A stretch of 53,822 nucleotides of DNA from Coleofasciculus sp. B1-GNL1-01. Its GTDB lineage: Bacteria > Cyanobacteriota > Cyanobacteriia > Cyanobacteriales > Coleofasciculaceae. This document shows, piece by piece, positions 779 through 24,946 of this stretch; position 1 is the stretch's first letter, and each line of letters opens with the position of its first letter. Position numbers and translations under genes: made by a program. The stretch is from the NCBI GenBank assembly GCA_040220235.1, contig JAVJTO010000050.1, one strand, 5' to 3'. The notes beneath the pieces were generated by a model. The model was given only the letters and a program-made list of their open reading frames with translations. It made no database searches and was not told the origin of the DNA.

Positions 779-798
779 TTTAGGTAAAGAGTTAAGGT

Positions 799-885: not shown

Positions 886-906
886 TCACATAAAAGGATT
901 AAGTAT

Positions 907-1518
907 TTATATATCACAGTCTTCAAAATAGCGACTCCAGTAACGGTCGATAGCTTTATCCAACTCTCCGAAAGGAAAGTCCTTATCATAATACTCCTTT
1001 AAAGCAACTAAGAAAGCCAGAACTGCTTTTCCTTCCTCGACAGTCAAGCTGTCGAAGCGCTCGTGAAACTGGGCTAGTTGCTCTCCAGAATCGAAGTATT
1101 CTAGTTGCTGCTCCCTGAGCAACTCTAGCATATCATCTGGGAGACCAGGTGAACGTTGAGCCAGGTAATCGTAGCTTTCTACAATATCCGGGCGAGATGG
1201 TTTGGTAAGCGTGCCTATAAGCACATCTACAAAGAAATCGACGGATTCGTATGAGTTTACAGAAGCAGATAAAAACGCAGGTAGAAAATACCGAAATGCC
1301 TCCGGAGTTAGCATCACAAGGTCACCTCCTATCTCATAGCGCATCTCCTCAGCAGTGAGTTCTCTGGGGGTTATCCTAGCCAGAAATTGACCCAGTTTTC
1401 TATGCTCGTACTGCACTCGAGGCAACGATACTAATATCTGAGTATCTAGGGGCCGAGGGCGTGAAGCAAAGGCATCAAAGAAATATGCTCTGAGGTCTTT
1501 GTTAGAAGGTATTTGCAT
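907..1518 (-). CDS. Putative immunity protein (DUF6714-like)
   Basis: 203-aa acidic ORF 15 bp downstream of a toxin-tipped DUF4157 gene; LTPEAFRYFLPAFL motif recalls DUF6714. Confidence 0.6.
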   Translation of the reverse strand: MQIPSNKDLRAYFFDAFASRPRPLDTQILVSLPRVQYEHRKLGQFLARITPRELTAEEMRYEIGGDLVMLTPEAFRYFLPAFLSASVNSYESVDFFVDVLIGTLTKPSRPDIVESYDYLAQRSPGLPDDMLELLREQQLEYFDSGEQLAQFHERFDSLTVEEGKAVLAFLVALKEYYDKDFPFGELDKAIDRYWSRYFEDCDI

Positions 1519-1533
1519 ATCATCGCGGATTGT

Positions 1534-2763
1534 TTAGTGTGCTTGTTGAATTTGCTTTAGGGCTGACTCGAGCGCCGCTATCACCGCTAAAATCCCTGCT
1601 GCTATAGAGCCAGCCACGCCTACGGCAAGAATGGCTTTCCCAAGTGCAATGATTGCGACAATAAGTGCAGCTATTGCAGCAATAGTTAGTCCTGCTTCGA
1701 CAAGCCTTTGAGTGCGTTCAACTACTTCCTCCATTACTTGTACTAATTGTTGTGGACAGTTAGAATCATCGAAGTACCTATAGCAACGCATCATCATGTT
1801 CGTCGTTTGCTCTATGTGATCACGATGTATTTTATCCCCACCCTTAAAACACGTAGTAGCCATTGCAGTCCGTGCGGCGATTTCTGCAGTAGCGGCGGCG
1901 ATCTTGGTCGCAAGGGTTACACAGTCGTCGGTATCATAACATCTACCAAGTGTAGCTGTGACTTTTTTAGTTGACTCTACTGCTACTAATAAGGCTGTAT
2001 ATCGGGCCCAACTACAGTCTCCTGGAGGCACCATACCATCACCAGGATAAAATTGCACTACTTGACCTGCCATCTTGGTGTGTATTTTTTTGCTCTGAAT
2101 ATTTGTATTGCTGCGTTCATTCGTAGGTTGTTGTTTGATATCAGGTGCGGTTCCCTGCTGCACCACATGAGTCAACTCATGGGCCGTCAACTCATTATTC
2201 CCCGGTGATTTCCCCGCCCCAAAATAAACATCACTCCCATGAGTAAACGCCTGAGCGCCCAACTCCTGATTCATCTGCACCGCTTCACCACCCGTATGCA
2301 CCCGCACCCCACTAAAATCAGCCCCAAAGCGCGGTTCCATAAATCCTCTCACGTCCTCTGATAATGGAGAACCTCCACCCTTAGACGCATTCAAACGACT
2401 CTCTAAATCCCCAGAGGCTTGATTTCCATCTATTTGATGCGCCCGTTGTATCATCTGGCGCATTTGCACACGCGGATCAATTCGCTTTTGCACCACGGGT
2501 GTAATTGATTGCGCTCGTTGCCATATCTGCTTGGGATTATTGGCTTCCAACTGACGCTGAACGGATGCTGAACTATCCGCAGGCGCTGACATTGATATTA
2601 CCTGAGACGCTACTCGGTCAGCTTCTTGCTCGTAAGTATCTCCTGGCGCTCCTATGGTTGACCCTGAGCGAAGTCGAAGGGTCAATTTCGTTTGAATGCC
2701 AATTTCATCTAAGTCTTTCCCGGCTTCTCCCGCCTGTTCCTTCTCTGTTGAGGAGTTATACAA
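1534..2763 (-). CDS. DUF4157 (eCIS core) protein with Ntox16-like tip and hydrophobic tail; 5'-deleted copy
   Basis: DUF4157 with AHELTHVVQQ; tip PGDC...C...CFKGGDKIH...RC; compared with 6255-8102 the native ATG and about 125 N-terminal codons are deleted, leaving a TTG start. Confidence 0.75.
   Translation of the reverse strand: MYNSSTEKEQAGEAGKDLDEIGIQTKLTLRLRSGSTIGAPGDTYEQEADRVASQVISMSAPADSSASVQRQLEANNPKQIWQRAQSITPVVQKRIDPRVQMRQMIQRAHQIDGNQASGDLESRLNASKGGGSPLSEDVRGFMEPRFGADFSGVRVHTGGEAVQMNQELGAQAFTHGSDVYFGAGKSPGNNELTAHELTHVVQQGTAPDIKQQPTNERSNTNIQSKKIHTKMAGQVVQFYPGDGMVPPGDCSWARYTALLVAVESTKKVTATLGRCYDTDDCVTLATKIAAATAEIAARTAMATTCFKGGDKIHRDHIEQTTNMMMRCYRYFDDSNCPQQLVQVMEEVVERTQRLVEAGLTIAAIAALIVAIIALGKAILAVGVAGSIAAGILAVIAALESALKQIQQAH
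2657..2680. repeat. 24-bp SDR-like palindromic insertion in frame within the DUF4157 gene
   Basis: GTTGACCCTGAGCGAAGTCGAAGG adds LRLRSGST, absent from both paralogs; related motif at about 39942-39970. Confidence 0.65.
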
Positions 2764-2876
2764 TTATAGTCAATCATCAAGGGAAAATCAGCGCGATCGC
2801 TTCCCCTGGTGAACTATAACGTTGTAACTCTAGCCCTCTTTTGTCACTGGAGGAATTTCGACTCAGATGAATTTAC
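2749..2876. repeat. Duplicated upstream (promoter) region of DUF4157 genes
   Basis: Homologous to 8161-8280 (GAGGAGTTATACAATTATAGTCAATCATCAAG...CTCTAGCCCTCTTT). Confidence 0.8.
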
Positions 2877-3139
2877 CCATTGCTCATTTTATAGATGCGG
2901 CGTTCAACCGCAGCCCTATATTTTGGAAGGATTTGGAGATTGAGGGTATTTGCGATAGCGATAATTAGCCGACTCTTTTATTCTGACAATGGTTGGAGTG
3001 TTTCGAGGTATGGATTCATCCCAAGACAGGGGGAAGAGGTATAGTGCGATCGCACAAACACTATTTTATTGATCGTAGCTGATTTCCTGAGATAGGTGAT
3101 CAGGGTAAGCTGGTGCTAGAGACGCGATCGCAAGCTAGT

Positions 3140-3611
3140 TCAGCCTAGCCCCATACCTCTCATAAAAACCTGAATATCTTGCATCAACTTCTGGCTACAA
3201 ATCGCTAATTTTTCTGATAATTGCACGACTAGATCAGGATTGAGATTATGAGCATAGTTACTTCTGACAACGTGGCGAAAGCGTCGGAATTCGTCCAAGT
3301 CAATTAATGTTGTCTCTGAAAGTACAGCTTGGCGAACCGTCGGGATCTCTACAGACAGTTGTTCCAATACTTGCCGATGCCAATCTGCACCTGTTGGCAC
3401 GTCTCCATCTATCTCTTTAGCAATTTCATAGAAGATACGCTCTGCTCCCGTATAATAGCTTTGCATATTCAGCGCAATAGCCGCGATGAGTGCGTTTTGC
3501 ATATCATCATCTTGAGTTTGGGGAAGTTTGTTGATCAGTCGTTGAGTTTGAGTGACTGCTTCTTTCGCCTTGTGCTAATTCCTGCTCAATGCGCTGAACC
3601 AACATAGTCAT
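3140..3611 (-). pseudogene. HEPN (HepT-like) toxin with a +1 frameshift near 3570
   Basis: ATG at 3611 gives MTMLVQRIEQELAQ; another frame continues AKEAVTQTQRL...SYYTGAERIF...FRRFRHVVR; directly downstream of an MNT gene. Confidence 0.75.
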
Positions 3612-3613
3612 CG

Positions 3614-3988
3614 TCACAGTTCTATCCCTTGCTGAATGGCTGCTTGGATATGGGGGGGTGATGATTCAGCATCTATCAGGTCAATGGGGAAATGATGTCC
3701 TCTTTCGGCAATTGCCCCAGCCCGTAGGTAATGGTTTGTTTCAATTCCCCAAACGGCAAGGTCGATATCAGAATGCCAGGTCATGCGCTGGTGATCAAGC
3801 ATTGAACCAAATAAAACAACGCGATTTGCGCCAAATTCCTCCTTCAGGGTAGCAGCCGCTTGGCGTGCTGCTTGCCAGCCTTGCTGCTGGAGTTTTTTCA
3901 TCTGGAGCAAAAACTCAGCCCTATTTTTACGGGCGGTTAGCACTCTCTTTACAATCTGTTCACGGGTTTTTGTGTCCACGGAGGGCAT
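3614..3988 (-). CDS. Minimal nucleotidyltransferase (MNT) antitoxin
   Basis: VVLFGSM...SDIDLAV motif; paired with the HEPN gene. Confidence 0.85.
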   Translation of the reverse strand: MPSVDTKTREQIVKRVLTARKNRAEFLLQMKKLQQQGWQAARQAAATLKEEFGANRVVLFGSMLDHQRMTWHSDIDLAVWGIETNHYLRAGAIAERGHHFPIDLIDAESSPPHIQAAIQQGIEL

Positions 3989-4116: not shown

Positions 4117-5073
4117 TTAAGTCTTGTCACCTTCTGGTTTTTCCAGTAATAAATCAATATCTCCAAACATCCCAGTTATATAGGATTCCAGAACTTCTCT
4201 TCCTTCAGCATTGGGACAAATTTTTATAGCTTCTAAGGCTTGTTCCCGTTCTTTTAAAGCTGCCCATATCAAGAAGCTTTTCGTGTCAATTTTGTCTAAT
4301 ATTTCTTTGATTCGTTCTGCATGAGTAGCGATTTCATTGTCTGTCACTAGGGACAATAGCTCATCTCGTTCTGAGTGATGAGATTCCAACCCATAGAGCA
4401 AAGGGAGAGTAATTTTTCCCTGCTTTAAGTCAGTTATACCATCAGGTTGCCAAATGGATTCCATGTCGTTAAGAATTTGTAGAGCAAGCCCCAGATGATG
4501 ACCAAAAGCACCACAAGATTGAATCAGTTCAGGGTTATCTGTTCCCACCATAGCACCAGTAGCACAAGCTGTAGCCACAAAGCCAGCACTTTTCATTTCT
4601 ACGGTTAACCAATAGTCTTCAACAGTTCGAGTAGTTCCAACTAGCTCTCTATCCTGACCTACTGATATACGAAAAAAGGCATCAATATAGGACTGATTAA
4701 TTTTGTGAAATATCTTGGGTTCAAGAGATGCTTTGCTCAGGATTTCAAAGGAAAGAATATGAATAGCTGAAGCATAATTCCAAGCTCTAGTGGCGCCGAC
4801 CTCCTTCCATAGCTGTCCATCTCGATCTTGATCTTCCAAATCATCCAAAATGCGTAGGCATAGACCCAGAGCTAGAAGTGCAGCACAAACATGAATAGCC
4901 TCTTTGGCTTCTCCATCAACAGCTTGACAGGAAGCTAATGGTAATATCGCCTCTGGAATCATTGGTTCTTCAAACAATTTGGCTAGTACCACCTTCAATT
5001 CTGTCCAAAAATTGGGAATTGAGTTTTGAAAAACCTCTCTAATTTCTGGATATAATGATTTTAAAGAATTCAT
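4117..5073 (-). CDS. ComQ-like isoprenyl transferase (class I isoprenoid synthase fold), copy A
   Basis: FARM LRILDDLEDQD followed by GQLW rather than RRG; GQD motif; KS; degenerate second motif QILNDMES; DLKQGKITLPLLY. Confidence 0.8.
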   Translation of the reverse strand: MNSLKSLYPEIREVFQNSIPNFWTELKVVLAKLFEEPMIPEAILPLASCQAVDGEAKEAIHVCAALLALGLCLRILDDLEDQDRDGQLWKEVGATRAWNYASAIHILSFEILSKASLEPKIFHKINQSYIDAFFRISVGQDRELVGTTRTVEDYWLTVEMKSAGFVATACATGAMVGTDNPELIQSCGAFGHHLGLALQILNDMESIWQPDGITDLKQGKITLPLLYGLESHHSERDELLSLVTDNEIATHAERIKEILDKIDTKSFLIWAALKEREQALEAIKICPNAEGREVLESYITGMFGDIDLLLEKPEGDKT

Positions 5074-5139
5074 GTCAATTTACTCAAAATTTACGACCAA
5101 TTGAGGCTGTGATGGAGCCCTCAACTATTGCATAATTCG

Positions 5140-6252
5140 TCAGTTTGTGGGATTCCAGACATACTTTCCCTTTTTGTCAATATAGCCTTGCTTTTCACCA
5201 ATCTTTACCCATGCCAGCCCTTCGATGAAGATACTAGCCCAATCAAACTGGGGTTCTATAACTATCTGCCCAGTTTTGTTGATATAGCCCCACTTATCCT
5301 CAATCTTTACTGCTGCCAACCCTTCAGAGAAATTAATAGGTCGCTCCTTAAACTGTGGATCAATAACCATTTTCCCAGTTTTGTCAATATAGCCCCATTT
5401 GACATTAGTCATGTTTGGTGGTTTGCTCTCAGCAGAGATCATACCAGTTGCGACGACTGCAAGTCCTTCAGAAAAGTCATAACCTTCATCAAATTGGGGT
5501 TCAATAACTATCCGACCAGTTGTATCAATGTAGCCTACTTTGTCTCCAACTCTGACAGCAGCTAATCCTTCAGAGAATTCCCTAACCAAATTTGAAGATG
5601 GATTGATTACTATCTGCCCAATTTTGTTGATATAGCTTACTCGCCTATCGAGTCTCACCAATGCTAGCCCTTTAGAAAACTCCCTAGCCTCATTAAACTG
5701 AGGCTTGATGACTATTTGCCCCGTCTTATTGATATAGCCCATTTTGCCATCAATATCTACAGCAGCCAACCCTTCAGAGAACCTATATGTTAAATCGAAC
5801 TGGGGAGGAATAACTAATTTACCCGTCTTATTGATATAGCCCATCTTGCCATCAATATCTACAGCAGCTAATCCTTCGTAAAAGCTATAAGCAGAATCAA
5901 AATCAGATTCAATAACAATTTGTCCAGTTTTATCGATATAACTCCACTTATCACCTATTCTGACGGTTGCTAGTTCTTCAGAGAACTGACCAGTTTCATC
6001 AAATTTGGGCTTGATAAGAATTTGCCCCGTAGAATTAATATAACCCCACTTACCATTCTGACTGATAGGAAACAGTTGGGAAGGCTCTGAGATTGGCATT
6101 TGTGAATGGTTTGATACCTGCATTGCCTGTGGAGAAGTACTCAATATGATTGTCGGACGTTGAGTGCTACAAGATAGCAAACCTAAAATAGCCTGGCATA
6201 AAAGCAAAAAAATGATTCGGTTCACCATAAACTTTTTGATATAAAACATCAT
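5140..6252 (-). CDS. WG-repeat (KWG beta-repeat) lipoprotein, putative immunity
   Basis: Signal peptide with lipobox-like LLSC; about 8 repeats of FSEGLAAV...KWGYINKTG; starts 2 bp after the toxin stop. Confidence 0.85.
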   Translation of the reverse strand: MMFYIKKFMVNRIIFLLLCQAILGLLSCSTQRPTIILSTSPQAMQVSNHSQMPISEPSQLFPISQNGKWGYINSTGQILIKPKFDETGQFSEELATVRIGDKWSYIDKTGQIVIESDFDSAYSFYEGLAAVDIDGKMGYINKTGKLVIPPQFDLTYRFSEGLAAVDIDGKMGYINKTGQIVIKPQFNEAREFSKGLALVRLDRRVSYINKIGQIVINPSSNLVREFSEGLAAVRVGDKVGYIDTTGRIVIEPQFDEGYDFSEGLAVVATGMISAESKPPNMTNVKWGYIDKTGKMVIDPQFKERPINFSEGLAAVKIEDKWGYINKTGQIVIEPQFDWASIFIEGLAWVKIGEKQGYIDKKGKYVWNPTN

Positions 6253-6254
6253 TA

Positions 6255-8102
6255 TTAGTGGTTGATTCTTTTAATTGTTCCTATATGTTGGGTGCCACTC
6301 CGTTTGTTAATTAGATGTTTGTAAATAGATGGCCAACTGTTATCTGTAACACTTACGCATCCCCAAGAAACGTCTCCACGGTGTAAATACTCATCTCCTT
6401 GGGGTCCACCTTCAATTCTAAACCACGTTTTGGCATAATTTCCGTAATTATCACCCCCAGCATGAGGGTGATCAGGAAGCCGAAGAGGATATTCTCTATC
6501 AAGGGCTATTTTAGGAGCACTCGGATCGTTGGGATTAGTATCTATTGTTGCTCTGGCAGTGCCACCACCATAATCTAATATCCCAGTTTTTTCATTAAAA
6601 GTTACCGCTACGGCTCCTCCCCAATTTGTCAAACCAAGGTATCCTGGTTTCAGGCTTGCTTTTGTTCCCTCCCAGGGTCCTTCCAAAATAGTAAAATAAT
6701 CTCGTTCCCCTTTTTGTTCTTGATATTCAACTTTCAATGCATCAGGAAAACTCCGCTGATTATTTCCTATTAGTCCAACCACCCAACCCTCTGTATTTCC
6801 AGAAGAGACACCCAGTATTTCCCCCTTCTTAAAAGTTGTTTGGGGAGTACATCCAGAGATACACCTTCTCAGGGTGTGGGAGTTATCTTTTTTCTGAATA
6901 TCTACAGCCTTTGGTTCCTCTAAAACCTGTTGCTGAGAAGCTACAATTTTATCAGCCGAATTTTCCCGTTGAAACTGAAGAATCTCCTTGCGGTAAACCG
7001 AGGAATCATGACCAGTAGTTCCTCCCAAGGATTGCAGATGGCTCAATACATCACTCTTAGGTGCTATCCCTTCCAGAATCGGTACTTCTTTTAAATTGAT
7101 TGCCGGTTTCTGAGGTTTCTGATTCTGCCGCTGCACAACACCTGTCTGCTGCACAACATGAGTCAACTCATGCGCTGTCAACTCATTATTCCCCGGCTCC
7201 TTCCCTTGACCAAAATAAACATCACTCCCATGAGTAAACGCCTGAGCGCCCAACTCCTGATTCATCTGCACCGCTTCACCACCCGTATGCACTCGCACTC
7301 CACTAAAATCAGCACCAAAGCGCGGTTCCATAAACCCTCTCACGTTCTCCGATAATGGAGAACCCCCACCCTTAGACGCATTCAAACGATTCTCTAAATC
7401 CCCAGATGCTTGATTTCCATCTATTTGATGCGCCCGTTGTATCATCTGGCGCATCTGCACACGCGGATCAATTTGCCTGTGCACCACAGGTGTAATTGAC
7501 TGCGCTCGTTTCCATATCTGATGGGGGTGATGGGGGTGATTGGTGTCCAACTGACGCTGAACGGATGCTGAACTATCAGGAGGCGCTGACATGGACATTA
7601 CCTGAGATGCTACTCGGTCAGCTTCCTGCTCGTAGGGATCTCCTGGTGCTCCTACCGTCAACTTGGTTTGAATGCCAATTTCCTCTAAGTCTTTCCCGGC
7701 TCCTCCCGCCTGTTCCTGCTCTTCTTTGGCACAATCAGCACATTGGCGTTGAATCGGGTTCTGTGATACTGGGGCAAAAGCACCTTTTAATTGGGAAGCT
7801 GGGCTTTGTGGTAAGGGTGGGGGTGGCTCAAACGTGGGTGCCCATGGTGATTCAGATTTACGCTGTAGCGTTGACTCTTCAGCTTCCTCCTGTTTTTTGG
7901 CTTGGATTCCTCGCATCACATTCGCGGTGAGTCTATCGGCTGATGCTCTGGAATACTCCCCGATTTCCTGGGATGGGGCAGATGACGGGTTTGACTTGGG
8001 TTGAATCGAAGAATGTCCCATTTTACCTGGACTCTTACCCTTTTTCTGTACTGGGGTGGGAGTCCAGGATGAATTTTTCTTGTGTACGGGTTTATACTCC
8101 AT
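6255..8102 (-). CDS. DUF4157 protein with Tlde1/DUF2778-like (L,D-transpeptidase fold) tip
   Basis: Low-complexity leader, CADC, DUF4157 HELTH, linker, then C-terminal YLHRGDVSWGCVSV (H..SxGC). Confidence 0.8.
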   Translation of the reverse strand: MEYKPVHKKNSSWTPTPVQKKGKSPGKMGHSSIQPKSNPSSAPSQEIGEYSRASADRLTANVMRGIQAKKQEEAEESTLQRKSESPWAPTFEPPPPLPQSPASQLKGAFAPVSQNPIQRQCADCAKEEQEQAGGAGKDLEEIGIQTKLTVGAPGDPYEQEADRVASQVMSMSAPPDSSASVQRQLDTNHPHHPHQIWKRAQSITPVVHRQIDPRVQMRQMIQRAHQIDGNQASGDLENRLNASKGGGSPLSENVRGFMEPRFGADFSGVRVHTGGEAVQMNQELGAQAFTHGSDVYFGQGKEPGNNELTAHELTHVVQQTGVVQRQNQKPQKPAINLKEVPILEGIAPKSDVLSHLQSLGGTTGHDSSVYRKEILQFQRENSADKIVASQQQVLEEPKAVDIQKKDNSHTLRRCISGCTPQTTFKKGEILGVSSGNTEGWVVGLIGNNQRSFPDALKVEYQEQKGERDYFTILEGPWEGTKASLKPGYLGLTNWGGAVAVTFNEKTGILDYGGGTARATIDTNPNDPSAPKIALDREYPLRLPDHPHAGGDNYGNYAKTWFRIEGGPQGDEYLHRGDVSWGCVSVTDNSWPSIYKHLINKRSGTQHIGTIKRINH

Positions 8103-8348
8103 GATGCCGCTTCAGTTACCCAATGATTTACTGATCCCAAGCCAATTGCTTCAATAATGCTGAGGAGTTATACAATTATAGTCAATCATCAAGAGAAAAT
8201 CAGTGCGATCGCTTCCCCGGCTGAACGATAATGTTGTGACTCTAGCCCTCTTTGGTCACTTGGGAAATTCCGACTAAGACAGACTTTTGATACAGGACAT
8301 CTCGACCCATTATGGAAGGTGCGCGTCTTGGTCGGAGAGAATATTGCT

Positions 8349-8980
8349 ATGACCACAACTCTACTTATTCAAACTGAAACCACTCCCTTAAAGATTTCGC
8401 TACCTGCGATCGCGCCAATGACTCGCGAGGAGTTCTATACCTTTTGCCAAGCGAATCGAGACTTGCGTATCGAACGTACTGCGGCTGGAGATGTTGTCAT
8501 TATGCCACCTGCTTTTTCAGATACCGGAAACCGCAATTTTAATCTAGCCGTACAGCTTGGTATCTGGGCGGAAATTGATGGTACAGGGAAAGGGTTTTGA
8601 CTCCAGTGCAGGATTTACGCTTCCTAATAGTGCAACGCGATTCTCCTACGGAGACGCTTCGCGAACGCCTGATGCGTCTTGGATTAAAACAGAACGGTGG
8701 AATGCTCTAACTGAAGAAGAAAAAGCATCCTTTGCCCCAATTTATCCTGATGCGTGTGATTGAGTTACGCTCGGCGAGTGATACTTTAAGTGGTTTGAAA
8801 GCGAAGATGCAGGAATACATAGAGAATCGTGTATCTCTAGGCTGGTTGATTGACCGCAAAAATCGCACTGTCTATGTCTATCGCCCGAATCAAGAGGTTC
8901 AAGTCTTGGAGAATCCAGAGCAGGTTAGTGGTGATCCAGAGTTACCCGGTTTCAGATTGCTGATGGCAAAGATTTGTTGA
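8349..8980 (+). pseudogene. Uma2/DUF820 endonuclease with two frameshifts and an SDR insertion
   Basis: Split over ORFs 8319-8600, 8557-8763 and 8732-8980; +1 shifts near 8590 and 8752 relative to the 362-778 copy. Confidence 0.85.
8637..8668 (-). repeat. SDR5-like element inserted in a HIP1 site
   Basis: 24 extra bp split GCGATCGC (intact at 460-467 in the paralog); reverse strand reads GCG-TTCGCGAAGCGTCTCCGTAGGAGA-ATCGC. Confidence 0.8.
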
Positions 8981-9000
8981 TTTTGGTAAAGAGTTAAGGT

Positions 9001-9084
9001 GTAGGGTGGGCAAATGGATATAATGTCTGGTGAAATTATTCAATTAACATAATTTGCCCACCCTACCAGATTGGGCGATCGCAC
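9001..9084. repeat. REP-like hairpin plus HIP1, copy 2
   Basis: GTAGGGTGGGCAAAT...ATTTGCCCACCCTAC then GCGATCGCAC. Confidence 0.8.
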
Positions 9085-9187
9085 TAAGCTGTTCGGCATT
9101 TAAACCTTAATATCAATAATGACGCAATCCTTGTAGTGCGAGCATCTTGCTCGCTACTAATACCCAATTTAAATGCATGACAGCTTA
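9085..9187. mobile_element. MITE-like element
   Basis: Imperfect terminal inverted repeats TAAGCTGTtcgGCATTTAAA / TTTAAATGCatgACAGCTTA; internal palindrome GTAGtGCGAGCATCTTGCTCGCTAC. Confidence 0.65.
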
Positions 9188-9422
9188 CGAGATATCAAAA
9201 GATAGTTCGCGTTTACTAGCAACACAATCTTCAAGGTATAAATTAATTAATTCTTGCCAAAACATTCCTTTTTCTTGTGCCATTTCCTCAAAATATTCTA
9301 TGACTTCTATCCCTAAGGGTAAAGTTACTTGTTGTTTTAATGTTTGGGCAAATGGATTGGGTATGCTTTTCTTGATTGATTCTATTCTTTTCGTTATCCC
9401 ACTCAAAAATTAATCGCTTCAT
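9185..9422 (-). pseudogene. Internally deleted BrnT/BrnA-type TA operon
   Basis: ATG at 9422 encodes MKRLIFEWDNEKNRINQEKH (BrnT N-terminus), joined out of frame near 9362 to NPFAQTLKQQVTL...LINLYLEDC (BrnA/CopG-like antitoxin). Confidence 0.7.
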
Positions 9423-9478
9423 ATTTACATATTAAAGTAAAAGGGTGAAGATGGTCAATCTTTCAACTAGAAGCGAGT

Positions 9479-9561
9479 CGGGTGGGCAAATGGATAAAAT
9501 TTCTAGTGAAGTCGTTAAATTAACATAATTTGCCCACCCTGCAATATTAGGCGATCGCACT
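9479..9561. repeat. REP-like hairpin plus HIP1, copy 3 (ISAs1 target)
   Basis: GGGTGGGCAAAT...ATTTGCCCACCC then GCGATCGCACT. Confidence 0.8.
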
Positions 9562-9612
9562 CAGGGTAAGCTCATCTAATTTGGTATAAATTGTACTTGA
9601 CAAAAGTAATAC

Positions 9613-9825
9613 TCATTATGGAGGAAGACGAAGGGTTTGCGATCGCGTCCCTGGCGGGGTGAGCCACAACTGTGATCAGTCGGTCATTATGGAGGAAGAC
9701 GAAGGGTTTGCGATCGCGCCCCTGACGGGGTGAGCCAAAACCGTTGTCAGGCGATTATCTGGGAGCAAGAGAAAGGGAAAGCGATCGTGTCCCTGACATG
9801 GGGCAACAAGACTTGTATAAGCCAG
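9613..9825. repeat. About 71-bp tandem repeat (2 close copies plus 1 degenerate) in the ISAs1 leader
   Basis: TCATTATGGAGGAAGACGAAGGGTTTGCGATCGCG at 9613 and 9684; degenerate copy from about 9753. Confidence 0.8.
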
Positions 9826-9914
9826 CCGATAAAAAATCTACTTGACATTTGAGCCAAAGAAGTGAGATGACAGCAATGCACTCACCCTTAAAACAACTTC
9901 AGGAATGAAGCTTT

Positions 9915-11174
9915 ATGTCTGAAGGATTTGAAACTCAATCGCATCAAGCCAACAAAACTACTCGTCATCAGTCGAAGCCCAGAGAAGCCGTATCAATTGA
10001 AGCTATTCAACAGAACTTAGTTGAGAATTTCTCTGATATCAAAGACAAGAGAGTAGAGCGAACGAAGAAACATCAGCTCACAGACATCTTAGTAATTGCA
10101 ATTCTGGCAATAATCGCTGGAGCAAAAGGATGGGAAGATATCGAAAATTATGGCATTAGTAAGCAAAAGTGGTTGGAGGAGTTTTTGGCATTACCTAACG
10201 GCATTCCCTCAGATGACACCTTCCGACGGGTATTTGAGTTCATTGACCCAGAAGCATTGCATCGATGCTTTGTGCGATGGGTAGAAACCCTGGTGACTCA
10301 GATGAACGGAGAAATCGTCCCCATAGATGGTAAGACTTTGAGAAGTTCCTACGACCGAAATCAAGGCCAATCAGCACTCCATGTCATTAGTGCTTGGGCA
10401 AGCGAACAACGTTTGGTGCTGGCACAGTTAAAAGTTGAAGATAAATCTAATGAAATCACTGCCATTCCCCCACTATTAGAGTTGTTGGATTTAACCGGAT
10501 GCATTGTGACTATTGATGCGATAGGAACCCAAACCGATATTGCCCGAAAGATTATCCACAAGAAAGCTGATTATGTCCTGGCACTTAAAGCGAATCATCC
10601 CACTCTCTACTGTCAGGTGAAAGCTTGGTTTGAGCAAGCTCAAGCCCAGCAGTTTGCAGGAATTGATGTTAGTTATGATAGACGCATTGAAAAAGCACAT
10701 CATCGCACGGAAATCCGCGAAGTTTGGTCTGTACCTGTTTCTGCTCTTGGTGATATTTATCAACCTCGACTCTGGGCAGGACTCCAAAGCCTTGTCATGG
10801 TTATCCGAGTGCGTCATCTCTGGAATAAAACGACTCGTGAAGTTCAGTTTTATTTGACTTCTTTATACAGTAATGCTCAACTTATCGGTCGAGCTATCCG
10901 AAAACATTGGGGGATTGAGAACCAAGTTCATTGGACTCTTGACGTCACTTTGGCTGAAGATGCTTCCCGTATTCGTTCTTTCCATAGTCCTCGAAATTTT
11001 GCTCTCTTGCGGCGCATGGCTCTTAATGCCCTCAACCGAGAACATACATATAAACGTAGTCTTCGACAAAAAAGTAAACGAGCAGCTATGGATAATGATT
11101 ATATGATTCAAGTTCTCAGTTGTTGTTTTACTAACAATACATTAGAGGCTTCTGATGCCTTGTGTCAAGCCTGA
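9915..11174 (+). CDS. ISAs1-family (H-repeat) transposase
   Basis: GIPSDDTFRR, IDGKTLR, KSNEITAIP, VTIDA, HWGIENQVHWTLDV motifs. Confidence 0.95.
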   Translation: MSEGFETQSHQANKTTRHQSKPREAVSIEAIQQNLVENFSDIKDKRVERTKKHQLTDILVIAILAIIAGAKGWEDIENYGISKQKWLEEFLALPNGIPSDDTFRRVFEFIDPEALHRCFVRWVETLVTQMNGEIVPIDGKTLRSSYDRNQGQSALHVISAWASEQRLVLAQLKVEDKSNEITAIPPLLELLDLTGCIVTIDAIGTQTDIARKIIHKKADYVLALKANHPTLYCQVKAWFEQAQAQQFAGIDVSYDRRIEKAHHRTEIREVWSVPVSALGDIYQPRLWAGLQSLVMVIRVRHLWNKTTREVQFYLTSLYSNAQLIGRAIRKHWGIENQVHWTLDVTLAEDASRIRSFHSPRNFALLRRMALNALNREHTYKRSLRQKSKRAAMDNDYMIQVLSCCFTNNTLEASDALCQA

Positions 11175-11224
11175 TTGAGATGCTCTTACCCTGCGATCGC
11201 ACTTGGCGTTAATTCTATAATGTT

Positions 11225-11377
11225 ATGTCACAATATAGTCGTTCTTATGTGCCAGGAGGAGTATTTTTTCTAACCTTGGTTACTTATCGCCGTATTCCTC
11301 TATTTTCGGAGGTTGAAAATATATCTTTGTTACGGAAGGCGATCGCACTACCGAGTAAGGCTTTAGCCTGGGTGTAA
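11225..11377 (+). pseudogene. 5' remnant of a REP-associated tyrosine transposase (RAYT)
   Basis: Translates MSQYSRSYVPGGVFFLTLVTYRRIPLF...LLRKAIA; homology stops at the HIP1 at 11339-11346. Confidence 0.7.
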
Positions 11378-11400
11378 TACATCACGAGAGGAACTTCAGG

Positions 11401-12363
11401 TTAAGTCTTGTCACCTTCTGGTTTTTCCAGTAATAAATCAATATCTCCAAACATCCCGGTTATATAGGATTCCAGCACTTCTCTTCCCTCAGCATTGGGG
11501 CAAACTTTTATAGCTTCTAAGGCTTGTTCCCGTTCTTTTAGAGCCGCCCATATCAAGAAGCTTTTCGTGTCAATTTGGTCTAATATTTCTTTTATTCTTT
11601 CTGCATGAATAGCAATGTCATTGTCTGTCACTAGGGATAATAGCTCATCTCGTTCTGGGTGCTGGGCTTGCAAACCATACAGTAAAGGAAGAGTAATTTT
11701 TCCTTGCTTTAAGTCTGTAATTCCATCAGGTTGCCATATTGATTCCATGTCGTTAAAGATTTGAATAGCCAATCCAACATGATGACCGAAAACGTGGCAA
11801 GCTTCAATCAGCTGTTGGTTTTCCGTTCCAAGCATTGCTCCCGATGCACAGGCGGCTGAGTATGCTGTAGCTGTTTTCAATTCTATAGTTCGCCAATAGT
11901 CTTCAATACTATTCGACAACCCGATCAAATCACGTTCTTGACCTACAGTTATATAGAAAAAGGCATCTATAAAGAGTTGATTAACTTTCCGAAATATTTG
12001 GGGAGAAAAGGAGGCCTTACTCAGTATCTCAAAGGATAGAATATGAATAGCTGAGGCATAATTCCAGGCACGAGCTTCTCCAAGCAGTTCCCATAACTGT
12101 CCTGGACGATCTTTATCTTCCAAGTCATCAAATATTCGCAGACTGACTTCTGTGGCAATAAGTGCTGCGGAAACAGGTACAGCTTCCCTCGCTGTCCCAT
12201 TAACGGCATGACAACTAACCAGCGGTAAGATAGCTACAGATAGCAGTGGCGGTGGTTTAGCGAAGATTGTATCAAAAATTGGCCTCAGCTCTGGCCAGCA
12301 ATCCGGAATTCCATCTTCAAGCACCTGACGCACTTCTGGATATAGTGATGTTAGCCAATCCAT
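11401..12363 (-). CDS. ComQ-like isoprenyl transferase, copy B
   Basis: LRIFDDLEDKDRPGQLW, GQE, KT, QIFNDMES; last 117 aa differ from copy A at only 8 positions. Confidence 0.8.
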   Translation of the reverse strand: MDWLTSLYPEVRQVLEDGIPDCWPELRPIFDTIFAKPPPLLSVAILPLVSCHAVNGTAREAVPVSAALIATEVSLRIFDDLEDKDRPGQLWELLGEARAWNYASAIHILSFEILSKASFSPQIFRKVNQLFIDAFFYITVGQERDLIGLSNSIEDYWRTIELKTATAYSAACASGAMLGTENQQLIEACHVFGHHVGLAIQIFNDMESIWQPDGITDLKQGKITLPLLYGLQAQHPERDELLSLVTDNDIAIHAERIKEILDQIDTKSFLIWAALKEREQALEAIKVCPNAEGREVLESYITGMFGDIDLLLEKPEGDKT

Positions 12364-12389
12364 ATTTTGAAACCCGTGTCATCTATTAC

Positions 12390-12893
12390 TTAAGGAAGTA
12401 CATGGACTTGAATGGGCTCTAGCTCTTTGTCTTTGTAGCTAGGTACTAATGTGTACTCACCAGGCGTTGGAAACAAAGACTGACCCATTGACCAACTCAT
12501 TGAAACTCTATCACCAGCAGGGAGAGCAAACCACTTCTCTTCTCGTAGACCATTACTAATTGCTAAATTCCATGCCATAGATTGCTCACCATTGATGAAA
12601 AGCTTTACCAGATGAAGTTCTGGATTTGTGACTTCGTCACTCTGGTTGGTAGCAGTAAGAGAAATCTTGAAGTTTTGTATCTCCGATATGGAGAACTCCA
12701 ACGGTTCAGCGGTAATTTGTAGCTGGACAGTATCTATCTTTGTATTTTGTTCTTTCATCGTTTCTTCTCCATTTTCTGGCAGTGAGGGATCAGCCGCCTG
12801 ATTTTGACCCTCAGTTTGACATATAACCAGCATAGTCACACTAAGGATAATAAGCGTGTAACGCGCAAAAAATTCTAAGCAAACATTCATCAC
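12390..12893 (-). CDS. Exported Ig-like protein, putative immunity
   Basis: N-terminal hydrophobic signal; beta-strand pattern (ISLTATNQ, PGEYTLV); ATGA overlap with the upstream toxin gene. Confidence 0.65.
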   Translation of the reverse strand: MMNVCLEFFARYTLIILSVTMLVICQTEGQNQAADPSLPENGEETMKEQNTKIDTVQLQITAEPLEFSISEIQNFKISLTATNQSDEVTNPELHLVKLFINGEQSMAWNLAISNGLREEKWFALPAGDRVSMSWSMGQSLFPTPGEYTLVPSYKDKELEPIQVHVLP

Positions 12894-14836
12894 GGAGTCC
12901 TTTCGACACTTTCACCAGCTTTTTTGACCTTGGAAGTACCATCCGAGCCTGATATCGAAAAGGCTTGGGTTACGGTTGTAAATTTCTTTCCATTACCCCC
13001 TTCACCTTTAACCCTAAAATGGTTTGGAATATCCCACTTGAATCCACCTTTTTTCCATGGTGCAGGGTGGCCAGAGAAAGCCGCGTGGTCTCGTAATGTA
13101 CCAAGTGTATTATCCTGTGCAATCGGGACAAAATTAGGATTCGGATGGTGATACAAACTAGCAGGAGGGTAAGGCTTGAAGTATCCCGATATATTAGTAG
13201 CTGGACCAGGAATCTCTTTGATGAAAGCATTTCCGAAAGACACTTTCTTGGGGTGAAAATTAAAGTTTAGGCGCATACCAGCACCCTGAGTACCCGCAGG
13301 GTAAGTATCTTCACTTGTCTTGGTTCCGGTGATACCATTGGGTTCTATGACATTCATCGAGACTGAGGATTCTTTACCACCTAGCTCAAACTTTATTTTC
13401 ACGGATGCAGCTCTATTGGGGGCAGTCCAATTAAACGTATTTCCGTTAGGCAAAGTTACAGGAGTCCCAGCTGATGCCGTCCACTTCCCTGCACTCGGTG
13501 CTTGAAATTTAACCTCTTCACCTACACCAACAACCGTTCGTGAATTTGGAGAGCCATCTGGTGCATTAAATTTTGTTTTATGAGTGATTTTGCCAGCCGC
13601 ATTACTATCCCCACAAGCTCGAAAAATTTTAGAGTTATCACCTGTCTGAGTTATACTTCCATTTTGAGTTGGCAAGAGTTGTCGCTGTTTCTCAAGAATC
13701 TGTTCAGTTGAATGGGTCTGCTGGAATTGAGCAATTTCTTTACGGTACAAAGCTCCATCAATATTTAATCGCTCCTGCATAGCTTGTAGATGACCCAAAA
13801 CTTGACTCTTGGGTGCGATGCCATGCAAAAGGCTAGGTTGGATCTGTTCTTGTTTATTCTTCCTCTGCACAACACCCGTCTGCTGCACAACATGAGTCAA
13901 CTCATGCGCCGTCAACTCATTATTTCCCGGCGATTTCCCTGCCCCAAAATAAACATCACTCCCATGAGTAAACGCCTGTGCGCCCAACTCCTGATTCATC
14001 TGCACCGCTTCACCACCCGTATGCACCCGCACTCCACTAAAATCTGCCCCAAAGCGCGGTTCCATAAACCTTCTCACGTCCTCGGATAACGGAGAACCTC
14101 CACCCTTAGACGCATTTAAACGATTCTCTAAATCCCCAGATGCTTGATTTCCATCTATTTGATGCGCCCGTTGTATCATCTGGCGCATCTGCACACGCGG
14201 ATCAATTTGCCTGTGCACCACGGGTTTAATGGATTGCGCTCGTTTCCATATCTGATGGGGGTGATGGGGGTGATTGGTGTCCAACTGACGCTGAACTGAT
14301 GCTGAACTATCCGCAGGGGCTGACATGGACATCACCTGAGACGCTACTCGGTCAGCTTCTTGCTCGTAGGGATCTCCTGGCGCTCCTACCGTCAACTTGG
14401 TTTGAATGCCAATTTCCTTTAAGTCTTTCCCGGCTTCCCCCGCCTGTTCCTGCTCTTGGTTGGCACAATCAGCACATTGGCGTTGAATCGGGTTCTGTGA
14501 TACTGGGGCAAAAGCACCTTTTAATTTGGAAGCTGGGCTTTGTGGTAAGGGTGGGGGTGGATCAAACGTGGGTGCCCAGGGCGATTCAGATTTACGCTGT
14601 AGCGTTGACCCTTCGGCTTGCTCCTGCTCCTTAGCTTGGATTCCTCGCATTACATTGGCGGTGAGTCTATCAGCTGATGCTCTGGAGTATTCCCCGATTT
14701 CTGGGGATGGGGTAGATGACGGGTTTGACTTGGGTTGAATCGAAAAATGTCCCATTTTACCGGGACTCTTACCCTTTTTCTGTACTGGGGTTGGAGTCCA
14801 GGAGGAATTTTTCTTTTGTACGGGTTTATACTCCAT
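12890..14836 (-). CDS. DUF4157 protein with an unassigned beta-rich C-terminal domain
   Basis: First about 326 aa near-identical to 6255-8102; homologous linker; unrelated tip of about 235 aa. Confidence 0.85.
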   Translation of the reverse strand: MEYKPVQKKNSSWTPTPVQKKGKSPGKMGHFSIQPKSNPSSTPSPEIGEYSRASADRLTANVMRGIQAKEQEQAEGSTLQRKSESPWAPTFDPPPPLPQSPASKLKGAFAPVSQNPIQRQCADCANQEQEQAGEAGKDLKEIGIQTKLTVGAPGDPYEQEADRVASQVMSMSAPADSSASVQRQLDTNHPHHPHQIWKRAQSIKPVVHRQIDPRVQMRQMIQRAHQIDGNQASGDLENRLNASKGGGSPLSEDVRRFMEPRFGADFSGVRVHTGGEAVQMNQELGAQAFTHGSDVYFGAGKSPGNNELTAHELTHVVQQTGVVQRKNKQEQIQPSLLHGIAPKSQVLGHLQAMQERLNIDGALYRKEIAQFQQTHSTEQILEKQRQLLPTQNGSITQTGDNSKIFRACGDSNAAGKITHKTKFNAPDGSPNSRTVVGVGEEVKFQAPSAGKWTASAGTPVTLPNGNTFNWTAPNRAASVKIKFELGGKESSVSMNVIEPNGITGTKTSEDTYPAGTQGAGMRLNFNFHPKKVSFGNAFIKEIPGPATNISGYFKPYPPASLYHHPNPNFVPIAQDNTLGTLRDHAAFSGHPAPWKKGGFKWDIPNHFRVKGEGGNGKKFTTVTQAFSISGSDGTSKVKKAGESVERTP

Positions 14837-15220: not shown

Positions 15221-17332
15221 ATGGATAGTCCCACACCCATCACCTGGTATCAAGCCAACTTTCACTATCTCCAGATAGCCGTTAATCAAGTCCGACAGGT
15301 TTTGGAAGATTACCTCGCTTACCAGCAAAATCAGCCCAACTTAGCCAAATTGGAAACAACGTTAGCCCCAGATGCCGCAACGATTCTCGACTATGCACCG
15401 CCAGTATTAGATAAACTCTGCGCTTTATTTCACCTCTCCCAATTTGACCGCTATATCCTCTTATTATGCGTTGGCATGGAGTTGGATAGTGAGTTTGAAG
15501 TCTTATGTGCCAAAATTAACGGCAATCCTAAACAAAATTATCCGACGCTGAATCTAGCCTTATCTACGTTTCACCAGTCTGATCTGAGCATTCTTTCCTC
15601 CCAATCTCCCTTACACTACTGGGAACTGATTGAAAGGGTGGAAGGATTATTCTTTACTCAATCACCTCTACGCATTAATCGGCGCATTCTCTGTTATCTG
15701 TTGAGTGAACCTTGCGTAGATAAGGAATTGGCAGGTATCCTTTTACCTGTACCGCCTTCATCTTCCACTCCTCTTCCCCCTTCGTATCAAGAAATTGCTG
15801 ACAAACTTATCGCCACTTGGTCTAAACCACTGGCAAATTTTGACGATCCCGTTGTTCAGTTATGTGGTTCAGATATAGGGGCAAAGCAATCTATTGCTAC
15901 TGTCGCCTGTAGTGCATTAGGCTGGAATCTTCAGATGATATCAGCCTCTGTTCTTCCCTTTAATCCCAATGAACTGTATCAGTTGATGCAACGGTGTTTC
16001 CGGGAAACTTTATTAAACCACAGTTTCTTGTTCCTGAATGCTGATGAGATGACTCAAGGTGATCCTCGGCGAGAATGGGCAATTGCTGAGTTTGTTGAAC
16101 AATTAGAAGTGCCATTAATTTTCAGCACCCAGGAACGACAACCGCAACATCAACGCCCGATGATTACTTTAGAGGTGGGTCAACTGAGTCATGCTGAACA
16201 ACGAGATATCTGGAAATTCCATCTCGGTTCACTGACAACAGAACTGAATGGACAACTTGATACCATCGTTTCTCAATTTAATCTGGATGCGGCAACTATT
16301 CAAGCTGCCTGTTTATCGCTGAATAGTAGTGACTATACGTCCACATCAACGGATAAACCACAGGAAGACAAACAAACCGATAAAGAACCAGCCAAAACAT
16401 CTTCATCCTCAACCCGTCGTCGCTCATCGAAAACTCAAAAGACTCAACCCAAAATAGAACATAATTTATCTCCCCTGCAAACTCATTTATGGGATTTCTG
16501 TAAAGTTCAAGCGCGTCCCCGTTTAGATGATTTGGCGCAACGGATTGATGCTGTAGCGACTTGGGAAGAGTTGATTCTACCAGAACGGGAAAAAAATACA
16601 TTACATGAAATTTCAACTCATGTGCGCCAACGAGCAAAAGTTTATCATGAGTGGGGATTTGCGGGAAAAGGAGGACGCGGTTTAGGGATTAGCGCTCTTT
16701 TTTCCGGACCGAGTGGAACTGGAAAAACTATGGCGGCGGACGTATTGGCAAAGGAATTGCGCCTTGACCTTTATCGGATTGATTTGAGTGCAGTGGTGAG
16801 TAAATATATTGGTGAAACGGAGAAGAATCTGCGGCGAATCTTTGATGCAGCGGAAACCAGTGGGGCAATTTTATTGTTTGATGAAGCGGATGCTTTGTTT
16901 GGTAAACGAACGCAAGTGAAAGACTCCCATGACCGCCATGCGAATGTGGAAGTGAGTTATTTATTGCAACGGATGGAAGCCTATCAGGGATTAGCGATTT
17001 TGACGACAAATCTGCTCGACGCCTTAGATCAAGCGTTTATGCGTCGGATTAATTTTTCGGTGAAGTTTCCCTTTCCCAACGCCCCAGAACGAACCGAGAT
17101 TTGGCAGCGCATTTTCCCAAAAGAAACGCCGACAAAGAACTTAGATATGAAAAAGTTGGGCAAACTAAATATGGCGGGGGGAAATATCCGTAATATTGCC
17201 TTAAATGCGGCGTTTATTGCGGCTGATGCGGGTGAACCTGTTATGATGAAACATCTTTTACAAGCGACGAAAAGCGAATCTCTGAAGTTGGGGAAAATTT
17301 TAACGGATTCTGAAATCAGTGGCTGGGTTTAA
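15221..17332 (+). CDS. AAA+ ATPase of the eCIS Afp15/Pvc15 type
   Basis: GPSGTGKT, DLSAVVSKYIGETEKNL, LLFDEADALFGKR, ANVEVSYLLQRME; degenerate first AAA module; adjacent to DUF4157 genes. Confidence 0.85.
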   Translation: MDSPTPITWYQANFHYLQIAVNQVRQVLEDYLAYQQNQPNLAKLETTLAPDAATILDYAPPVLDKLCALFHLSQFDRYILLLCVGMELDSEFEVLCAKINGNPKQNYPTLNLALSTFHQSDLSILSSQSPLHYWELIERVEGLFFTQSPLRINRRILCYLLSEPCVDKELAGILLPVPPSSSTPLPPSYQEIADKLIATWSKPLANFDDPVVQLCGSDIGAKQSIATVACSALGWNLQMISASVLPFNPNELYQLMQRCFRETLLNHSFLFLNADEMTQGDPRREWAIAEFVEQLEVPLIFSTQERQPQHQRPMITLEVGQLSHAEQRDIWKFHLGSLTTELNGQLDTIVSQFNLDAATIQAACLSLNSSDYTSTSTDKPQEDKQTDKEPAKTSSSSTRRRSSKTQKTQPKIEHNLSPLQTHLWDFCKVQARPRLDDLAQRIDAVATWEELILPEREKNTLHEISTHVRQRAKVYHEWGFAGKGGRGLGISALFSGPSGTGKTMAADVLAKELRLDLYRIDLSAVVSKYIGETEKNLRRIFDAAETSGAILLFDEADALFGKRTQVKDSHDRHANVEVSYLLQRMEAYQGLAILTTNLLDALDQAFMRRINFSVKFPFPNAPERTEIWQRIFPKETPTKNLDMKKLGKLNMAGGNIRNIALNAAFIAADAGEPVMMKHLLQATKSESLKLGKILTDSEISGWV

Positions 17333-17375
17333 AATCCTGTTGGTTCATCCCACGGTTTCCCAGTCTCTACATCAG

Positions 17376-24930: not shown

Positions 24931-24946
24931 TCACTGAGTCACTGTC

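Follow-up and report, generated by a model that had tools for sequence, protein, structure and literature searches.

A recurrent gene triad in Coleofasciculus pairs leader-bearing DUF4157 cargo proteins with a putative dedicated prenyltransferase

The window analysed here is a contig of 53,822 nucleotides (JAVJTO010000050.1) from the cyanobacterium Coleofasciculus sp. B1-GNL1-01 (assembly GCA_040220235.1; 8.66-Mb genome, 45.5% GC, HIP1-rich), and its subject is a three-gene cassette, present twice, in which a DUF4157 cargo gene is followed by a middle gene and by a gene for an enzyme with the fold of isoprenyl diphosphate synthases (IDS), a putative prenyltransferase of the cargo. A first-pass annotation had described two co-oriented, tightly spaced triads, and this layout was confirmed for all six open reading frames (ORFs), which are all encoded on the minus strand and spaced -4 to 66 bp apart: cassette 1 consists of the cargo gene T1 (648 aa; 12890..14836), the middle gene I1 (167 aa; 12390..12893) and the enzyme gene PT1 (320 aa; 11401..12363), and cassette 2 of T2 (615 aa; 6255..8102), I2 (370 aa; 5140..6252) and PT2 (318 aa; 4117..5073). 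Its description of like cargo N-halves, unrelated tips and middle genes, and paralogous IDS-fold third genes also held; T1 and T2 are 82% identical over their first 415 aa (92.5% DNA identity over 1041 bp) and divergent beyond, I2 encodes a WG-repeat lipoprotein whereas I1 matches no Pfam family, and PT1 and PT2, which are 71% identical, both match PF00348. A third triad lies elsewhere in the genome, on contig C155, and its enzyme is 45% identical.

Both cargo proteins begin with a low-complexity N-terminus, continue into a DUF4157/eCIS_core domain (eCIS, extracellular contractile injection system; 13874..14092 in T1, with an HELTH motif, and 7140..7358 in T2) and end in unrelated tips (12893..13594 and 6258..6845, respectively). 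Between DUF4157 and the variable tip lies a leader of ~75 residues, spanning residues 334-411 of T1 (13604..13837) and 340-417 of T2 (6852..7085). The T1 copy reads VLxHLQ...YRKEIxxFQ...IxxxQxQLL...IFR-A-C-G and is predicted, from alignment, profile search and a complex model, to dock on the prenyltransferase; the T2 copy ends TLRR-C-ISG-C, and most copies end LRR-C-G. The 73 residues past DUF4157 are ~44% alike in T1 and T2, and elsewhere in the genome only the C155 cargo matches them. An alignment of 15 copies gave VLxHLQ...YRKEIxxFQ...IAAxQxQxLE...DI...TLRR-C-G, in which F38 and R73 (leader numbering) are invariant. A profile search returned 99 matches, from which the 2 weakest were dropped as repeats, leaving 97, and 4 more could not be anchored, leaving 93. 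The leader precedes 24 unrelated tip families (87 tips) and, in toxin arrays, is confined to whichever gene precedes an enzyme. It matches no Pfam family; neither the leader nor the enzyme clade has a family model, and the leader is previously undescribed.

The association between enzyme and DUF4157 genes, which the first-pass annotation had put forward for a neighbourhood survey, was borne out: 27 of the 32 clade genes with context have a DUF4157 gene within 3.4 kb upstream on the same strand, against 0 of 149 control loci. These controls, IDS-fold loci amounting to 1.78 Mb (97 of them with at least 3 kb upstream), are the non-members from pattern scans of genome and metagenome collections, in which housekeeping IDS genes predominated and 11 of 160 loci belonged to the clade; the 32 clade genes include several near-identical strain copies, and many rows are kin. 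A leader lies within 2.5 kb upstream of 24 of the 32 enzyme genes, a count which is partly circular because the leader profile was built from 15 of these loci. The triad layout is found again in Pseudomonadota, Acidobacteriota, Bacteroidota, Gemmatimonadota and Chloroflexota, as well as in other cyanobacteria; among the hosts are Methylococcales, Acidobacteriota, Microscillaceae, Gemmatimonadales, Chloroflexota and an Acaryochloris plasmid. The triad is thus more than chance, because there is a third copy in the genome, the layout recurs across phyla, and none of the 149 controls has a DUF4157 gene.

Of the 13 DUF4157 genes in the source genome, 3 have a leader, and they are exactly those that precede an enzyme gene. 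Among 41 related genomes, the 6 with the leader (five of which fed the leader profile) are also the 6 with the enzyme, whereas 21 other DUF4157-positive genomes, with 84 matches, have neither. In another cyanobacterial family, whose 201 genomes had no part in the profile, the leader was found in 4 genomes, all among the 6 with the enzyme; of the two enzyme-only genomes, one has a decayed T2-like remnant upstream and the other carries a distant member. In one genome (G162) the enzyme and the leader-bearing cargo are on different contigs, and two more leader-bearing cargo genes lack an adjacent enzyme, both in enzyme-positive genomes; because the two are unlinked in some genomes, action in trans is plausible. 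The enzyme clade was found in 2 of 401 genomes of the phylum and in 1 of 301 Chloroflexota genomes, and the leader in 1 of 251 and 1 of 201 genomes of wide draws, in the centre genomes only; these near-empty draws indicate that the system is rare, and the survey is small. Enzyme and leader identities correlate (Mantel rho 0.76, 17 pairs, 0 of 5000 permutations), a correlation which reflects co-inheritance and not co-evolution. Together, these comparisons of gene content and sequence identity show leader and enzyme being inherited together while tips and middle genes change.

Several variants of the layout were seen in passing. The C155 triad (551-3549) has a papain-like tip with the motif GNCGEHA, which we take to resemble HopX-type catalytic triads, together with a lipoprotein partner, an enzyme with DDFEG as its second motif and a leader end, MMRGN, lacking Cys; this enzyme subtype is paired with its own leader subtype. 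L086 (13.9 kb) holds a seven-gene DUF4157 array with one divergent enzyme in mid-array, and a post-core QR-C-IPG-C occurs only in the gene before that enzyme. A distant enzyme subclade (~30% identity) lies behind cargo with a different linker, a YHGT-type ADP-ribosyltransferase-like tip (labelled by eye) and no middle gene (L186:6071-8870, L203:6248-8369, L202:209-1616). A minimal version in two genomes (G831 and G797; L200:7111-9199, L201:3542-5685) consists of DUF4157, the leader and a ~58-aa tip with three Cys, directly before an enzyme and without a middle gene, and resembles the precursor of a ribosomally synthesised and post-translationally modified peptide (RiPP) set on an eCIS cargo.

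The PT1 model is an all-helical IDS fold (predicted local distance difference test score, pLDDT, 91.5), matching polyprenyl synthases with a TM-score of ~0.8 and Ord1 with 0.77-0.78 at ~20% identity. PT1 has a first Asp-rich motif (FARM), DDLED, followed by K163, Q201 and NDMES in the place of the second Asp-rich motif (a pseudo-SARM), and the donor side is intact across 120 homologs: D79 is present in 120/120, D80 in 109, D83 in 117, K163 in 115, Q201 in 119 and N204 in 117. The elongation side is not; GKRxR was found in 0 of 120 homologs as opposed to 97 of 135 control loci, DDxxD..RR in 1 of 120 as opposed to 131 of 149, and Asn takes the first position of the second motif in 117 of 120, a position held by Asp in all 135 housekeeping controls. 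Judged by GKRxR, DDxxD..RR and a second DDxxD, the enzyme is not a canonical trans-IDS. A FARM DDxxD and a pseudo-SARM NDxxx on an IDS fold correspond instead to the ComQ signature as worded in the accessible part of 10.64898/2026.08.29.745113; a C155-type subclade has DDFEG in place of NDxxx, and the Gln one turn before the second motif (Q201, 119/120) occurs in the controls too and does not discriminate. All NCBIfam matches of the enzyme fell far below cut-off. The residue five before the FARM is Ser, Cys or Ala in 114 of 120 homologs. A small residue at this position points to a C15-C20 donor, which suggests the same for these enzymes. In a quick tree of 47 rows, subject to long-branch warnings, a single clade (SH-aLRT 99) takes in all 32 DUF4157-linked enzymes and excludes both the housekeeping IDS and a ComQ-type group from Chloroflexota that is linked to kinases.

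The term "ComQ-like", used in the first-pass annotation, is apt as regards fold and motifs; it fails for family membership, there being no ComX-like peptide downstream, and for chemistry, since Trp occupies the candidate site in only 2 of 93 leaders. ComQXPA neighbours (a short C-terminal-Trp peptide, a sensor kinase and a regulator) were not found around the enzyme genes, and a short downstream ORF with a late Trp follows only 3 of 28 enzymes, the three being mutually unrelated; the system is not a ComQXPA member. On its motifs, the enzyme looks like a peptide prenyltransferase and not a chain elongator. No enzyme-cargo fusion was found among the 645-2000-aa proteins searched, which is weak evidence. 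In Chloroflexota, ComQ-type enzymes with an ND second motif and no RR (L006, L007, L087 and related) lie directly upstream of membrane histidine kinases, and these are probably ComQXP-like signalling loci. In two phyla the enzyme gene is flanked by a gene for a Cys-cluster protein that by eye resembles YkgJ/zinc-iron chelating proteins (L002:6488-7048, L004:11090-11767).

A complex model of PT1 with the T1 leader scored 0.87 (three runs at 0.02, 0.87 and 0.87), and the best of 3 controls scored 0.00; the score passes a mark attained by 116 of 157 solved pairs and by 2 of 215 mismatched ones, a calibration which applies only roughly because our own alignments were used. The runs agree in at least 65% of contacts, and the pLDDT of the partner is at least 42. 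The tightest modelled contacts join leader residues Y31, E34, I35, F38, I47, K50 and Q51 to enzyme residues 268-275 and 299-306, where the predicted docking motifs FLIWAAL and ITGMFGD lie; this surface is conserved in the clade (W272 in 115, F269 in 114, L275 in 114, T302 in 116 and F305 in 118 of 120). The modelled interface also takes in leader residues 67-76 (DNSKIFRACG) together with enzyme residues 76, 79, 164-166, 197-204 and 207; the listed contacts do not pair these two stretches, but this end of the leader may face the active site. The model supports direct binding of the cargo leader by the enzyme.

PT1 and PT2 differ unevenly along their length (52% identity over residues 1-100, 63% over 101-200 and 92.5% over 201-320), and the docking motifs fall in the near-identical part. 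At the DNA level the 3' third (11401-11760 versus 4117-4475) is 86-100% identical and the 5' two-thirds 59-74%. Gene conversion or recombination may have acted on this leader-docking part.

If the leader is prenylated, the accepting residue would be expected near its end. Relative to the conserved Arg, 51 of the 93 leaders have Cys at +2, 14 have Cys at +1 or at +3 to +5, 8 have Lys at +2, 7 have Trp, Tyr or Phe, and 13 have another residue; Cys within five residues past the Arg thus occurs in 65 of 93 leaders compared with ~4% expected, since Cys makes up 0.8% of tip residues and five positions were counted. An R..C motif behind DUF4157 is present in 49 of 72 leader proteins but in only 4 of 40 non-leader proteins, 2 of those 4 directly before distant-clade enzymes, and 29 of 97 leader ends hold two or more Cys. 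Two distant-clade cargoes that are 61% identical, from a cyanobacterium and a member of the Chloroflexota, read QFK-W-G and QFK-C-G at one site. The candidate acceptors are Cys408 of T1 (13613..13615), two residues past Arg406, and Cys414 of T2 (6861-6863). Given that prenylation takes place, we put Cys at slightly better than even as its acceptor; taken over all readings, the chance falls somewhat below even. Trp, Tyr, Lys, the conserved Arg itself and a new N-terminal amine are the alternatives; either of the last two would account for every leader, the Arg being invariant and the amine being released by cleavage.

The cargo has the genomic features of eCIS polymorphic effectors, and its loading into and injection by a particle are proposed. 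DUF4157/eCIS_core occupies residues 249-321 of both T1 and T2 (PF13699, 96-98 bits against a Pfam cut-off of 22), carries HExxH and sits N-terminal to the variable domain, as in eCIS cargo; by composition, used as a proxy only, the N-terminus of T1 and T2 holds 65-66% disorder-promoting residues versus 49-56% elsewhere. Structural genes of a contractile injection system (CIS) are present in the genome, with 4 PF06841 tube matches on contigs C29 and C83 and an adjacent sheath-like ORF (by eye), and one homologous enzyme-cargo locus, from Gemmatimonadales, lies inside a CIS operon. Divergent from cassette 1 is a gene for an AAA+ ATPase with a winged-helix domain (15221..17332, plus strand; PF00004 and PF22977), a probable cargo loader, putatively of the Afp15/Pvc15 type, whose paralogs adjoin DUF4157 genes on contigs C4 and C59 and in relatives. 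Behind a DUF4157 cargo and its lipoprotein partner on C59 there is a gene without assigned family (16718-17596), possibly a further accessory enzyme.

Cargo with a constant N-terminus, swappable tips and a cognate downstream gene, the last absent in 5 loci, is the layout of polymorphic toxins, and it is from this layout that the labels toxin and immunity are inferred. The T1 tip comprises an Ig/PKD-like N-terminal domain (1-84) and a beta domain of ~150 aa; its model is all-beta (pLDDT 97.5), and the first domain matches invasin (Z 8.9, root-mean-square deviation 1.6, 71 residues aligned), whereas the second, which was not searched alone, gave no clear fold match, Atlas matches all being below 0.9. 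The tip may therefore bind rather than kill. The T2 tip has an SH3-like part and an HxG-x3-SxGC motif, a lead to L,D-peptidoglycan peptidases of the Tlde1/DUF2778 type; Atlas gave DUF2778 at 0.89 and YkuD at 0.81, which being below 0.9 are leads only, and the His-Cys spacing is 8 as against 10 in Tae5 (the motif was compared with the accessible part of 10.1101/2020.02.18.954545). A sequence search found no solved relative of this tip. Among 82 leader proteins, a scan gave 2 transglutaminase-like and 2 ATLF-like matches. I1 has a hydrophobic N-terminus (hydropathy 3.06) and is a putative exported immunity protein; I2, with eight PF14903 repeats and a lipobox-like N-terminus, is a putative periplasmic one. 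More widely, the protein encoded directly behind a leader-bearing cargo gene starts with a hydrophobic stretch in 16 of 21 cases; behind other DUF4157 genes the count is 9 of 23 (Fisher p 0.017, with rows that are not independent).

What occupies the place of the leader in its absence suggests what a lipid might be for. T1-tip homologs number 41, of which 10 have the leader; in the 31 leaderless ones the slot holds a transmembrane helix in 6, OmpA in 4, PG_binding_1 in 3 and an amphipathic segment in 4 (by eye). A transmembrane helix was found in 0 of the 10 leader-bearing homologs, and a transmembrane-like stretch in 0 of 97 leader proteins. An anchor to the envelope or membrane fits best as the purpose of lipidation. 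A role in loading is less likely; it fits less well because AlgoCIS cargo needs only a disordered N-terminus, according to the accessible text of 10.64898/2026.05.27.728243.

We propose that these cargoes are probably a subclass of eCIS/PVC cargo (PVC, Photorhabdus virulence cassette) that is lipidated, in the leader-guided manner of RiPPs, by a dedicated co-encoded prenyltransferase of trans-IDS fold. The lipidation of polymorphic-toxin effectors that the first-pass annotation had put forward is in this way sharpened and in part supported. The YRKEIxxF helix of the ~75-aa leader between DUF4157 and the swappable tip would dock on the clade-specific FLIWAAL/ITGMFGD surface, with part of the leader reaching the active site; the enzyme would ionise farnesyl diphosphate (FPP) or geranylgeranyl diphosphate (GGPP) at the intact first Asp-rich motif and move the prenyl chain to a residue just past the conserved Arg, most often Cys, as a thioether. 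The AAA ATPase may then load the cargo by its probably disordered N-terminus, and after injection, possibly following cleavage by DUF4157 at the dibasic site, the lipid would hold the tip at the target membrane or envelope, while the middle gene, usually exported, would protect kin. DUF4157 has been proposed to be an autoprocessing peptidase (PMC3482391, accessible text), and this autoprocessing is described as still untested in the available portion of PMC11297309. A bolder form of the proposal, which we hold tentatively and at less than even odds, is that the enzyme is the first bacterial-encoded protein S-prenyltransferase, with a portable 75-residue internal leader, placing farnesyl or geranylgeranyl on a Cys that heads any fused domain, giving a lipoprotein-like N-terminal anchor once cleaved, and distributed over at least 6 phyla.

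Several observations weigh against the proposal. The enzyme genes without an upstream leader number 8 of 32; 2 of these are behind decayed or truncated cargo, 1 is near a contig end, 1 has a leader elsewhere in its genome and 4 are distant members, among them 3 with a DUF4157 gene immediately upstream. One of the three docking runs scored 0.02, with our own alignments as input. As many as 28 of 93 leaders lack a Cys close to the Arg, that of the C155 cargo of this very genome among them, and according to the accessible text of PMC13290415 Trp is the target of every trans-IDS-like prenyltransferase characterised so far, with PalQ inactive on other nucleophiles. Neither tip in the window contains a curated toxin domain in Pfam. 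No anchor is evident in 14 of the 31 leaderless T1-tip homologs, and on contig C4 (130121-136990) a T2-like tip (40%) with a WG-repeat partner (61%) is set on another DUF4157 chassis without leader or enzyme, the AAA gene being again divergent; for these tips, therefore, the lipid would be optional and not essential.

Part of this evidence would fit an enzyme that binds the leader as a chaperone or gatekeeper, keeping the cargo inactive or unfolded before loading and transferring nothing: the strongest modelled contacts are outside the active site, the 28 Cys-free leaders pose it no difficulty, and chaperone roles have been suggested for DUF4157 neighbours (PMC11297309, in the text available). 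We consider this unlikely, as the donor-binding residues are near-invariant in 120 homologs and binding alone leaves both the Cys enrichment and the anchor-slot swaps unexplained. Distinctly unlikely is that the enzyme is itself a co-delivered effector, for which the leader is only a carrier, and that it prenylates proteins, lipids or small molecules of the target after injection; lipid-modifying enzymes are known as PVC toxin domains (PMC3482391, accessible text) and Ord1, of related fold, prenylates free Trp, but cargo is believed to be loaded unfolded, a passage that a folded enzyme riding on it would not withstand, the enzyme as modelled has no disordered loading sequence, and the leader itself reaches the active site in the model.

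It is just as improbable that the cargo stays unmodified and that the enzyme acts instead on the middle protein or on a small peptide like ComX. ComQ, StheQ and PalQ do act on adjacent small peptides, and some middle proteins, I2 among them, have a Trp near the C-terminus; the middle genes, however, are mutually unrelated, mostly exported and missing from 5 loci in which cargo abuts enzyme, the late-Trp ORFs are as scarce and dissimilar as described above, and it is the leader, not the middle gene, that tracks the enzyme. Best sequence and fold matches to GGPP and polyprenyl synthases, and homologs annotated as such, would suit a conventional isoprenoid synthase that elongates or cyclises chains, and that either provides prenyl diphosphate or is a passenger of toxin arrays. 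This we regard as very unlikely, given NCBIfam matches far below cut-off, the loss of the motifs that bind isopentenyl diphosphate, the Asn at the head of the second motif, and a clade that is rare (2 of 401 genomes) and separate from the housekeeping enzymes.

Apart from the leader, the first-pass annotation had missed the divergent AAA ATPase gene and a pair of genes at 2763-907: T3 (1534..2763, minus strand), a 5'-truncated DUF4157-Ntox16 gene which has neither leader nor enzyme and served as an internal control, and a DUF6714 gene (907..1518, minus strand), its putative cytoplasmic partner. An ISAs1-type transposase gene (9915..11174, plus strand; PF13808 and PF01609) lies between the cassettes and outside the system. 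Between or near the cassettes there are also a nucleotidyltransferase-HepT toxin-antitoxin pair, broken Uma2 copies and a transposase-like fragment (3140-3988 on the minus strand, 413-778, 8319-8980 and 11225-11377); the cassette array is a recombination and insertion hotspot. Farther along, an FHA-Ser/Thr kinase gene (17376-18737, minus strand) is convergent with the AAA gene, four tandem DUF928-type genes (21698-25765, plus strand) follow, the first of them confirmed by Pfam, and 45108-52331 holds a cluster of NB-ARC-like regulator, kinase-TPR, TPR and CHAT-like genes, labelled by eye. Promoter and terminator counts were at or below the level of shuffled sequence, and an RNA search of the window listed none.

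The nearest known systems each share a part of this arrangement. DUF4157 (PVC-metallopeptidase) cargo of eCIS/PVC (AlgoCIS Cgo1/Cgo2 and EAT14), as far as the accessible texts describe it, has a disordered N-terminus, to which the composition of T1 and T2 is similar, and the same DUF4157 HExxH, variable tip, AAA ATPase neighbour and tube/sheath genes elsewhere, but no leader or modifying enzyme has been described for it. The word "prenyl" is absent from the searched text of eCIS/PVC papers including PMC11297309, PMC3482391 and 10.64898/2026.05.27.728243, and PF00348 is not enriched in eCIStem operons (3 matches, odds ratio 0.26), with none beside DUF4157 among the matches listed. PalQ is guided by an NHLP leader and was also found by way of a predicted enzyme-substrate complex (PMC10853753, accessible text), and the PalQ/PalX pair is thus akin in its leader-guided IDS-like prenylation, which for the present system is proposed. 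ComQ, StheQ, PalQ and ChrPC share the IDS fold, the FARM DDxxD, the pseudo-SARM NDxxx and the Gln before the second motif, but modify a Trp in short signal peptides or in RiPP cores encoded beside sensor kinases; the system described here has multidomain cargo of 350-800 aa, an internal leader, an internal candidate site that is mostly Cys, and no kinase or ComX.

In RTX toxins, a co-encoded activating acyltransferase (HlyC for HlyA) lipidates the secreted toxin and aids its action on membranes, moving a fatty acyl group from acyl carrier protein onto Lys of a single toxin type that is exported by type I secretion. The present system differs in its predicted isoprenoid, IDS fold, portable leader and 24 tip families, and the all-helical IDS fold sets the enzyme apart from the RtxC fold. 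The effectors AnkB of Legionella and SifA of Salmonella are S-prenylated on Cys by the host for membrane anchoring. Eukaryotic farnesyltransferase and geranylgeranyltransferase (FTase/GGTase) perform Cys S-prenylation to the same end (PMC10853753, accessible text). Those proteins depend on host heterodimeric enzymes and C-terminal CaaX/CC motifs, whereas here the enzyme comes from the producer's own genes and the candidate site is internal; the leader ends with two or more Cys, 29 of 97, do recall CC/CXC sites. The first-pass annotation knew of no described system with this layout, and in line with that we found no literature linking prenylation to DUF4157/eCIS cargo, subscription journals and some supplements lying outside the search. 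We rate the system as new in kind and built from known parts, namely DUF4157 cargo and IDS-like peptide prenyltransferases, with RTX acylation as a functional analogue.

Should the proposal be true, bacteria would prenylate large secreted proteins of their own, and an enzyme family in which all characterised members are Trp-directed would gain a Cys-directed branch. The function of DUF4157 would become testable, because the leader marks a defined point of processing and modification. A leader that tolerates 24 unrelated folds would amount to a tag, written into the gene itself, by which ordinary proteins could be lipidated in bacteria, and the enzymes that act on it would be among those currently mis-annotated as GGPP synthases.

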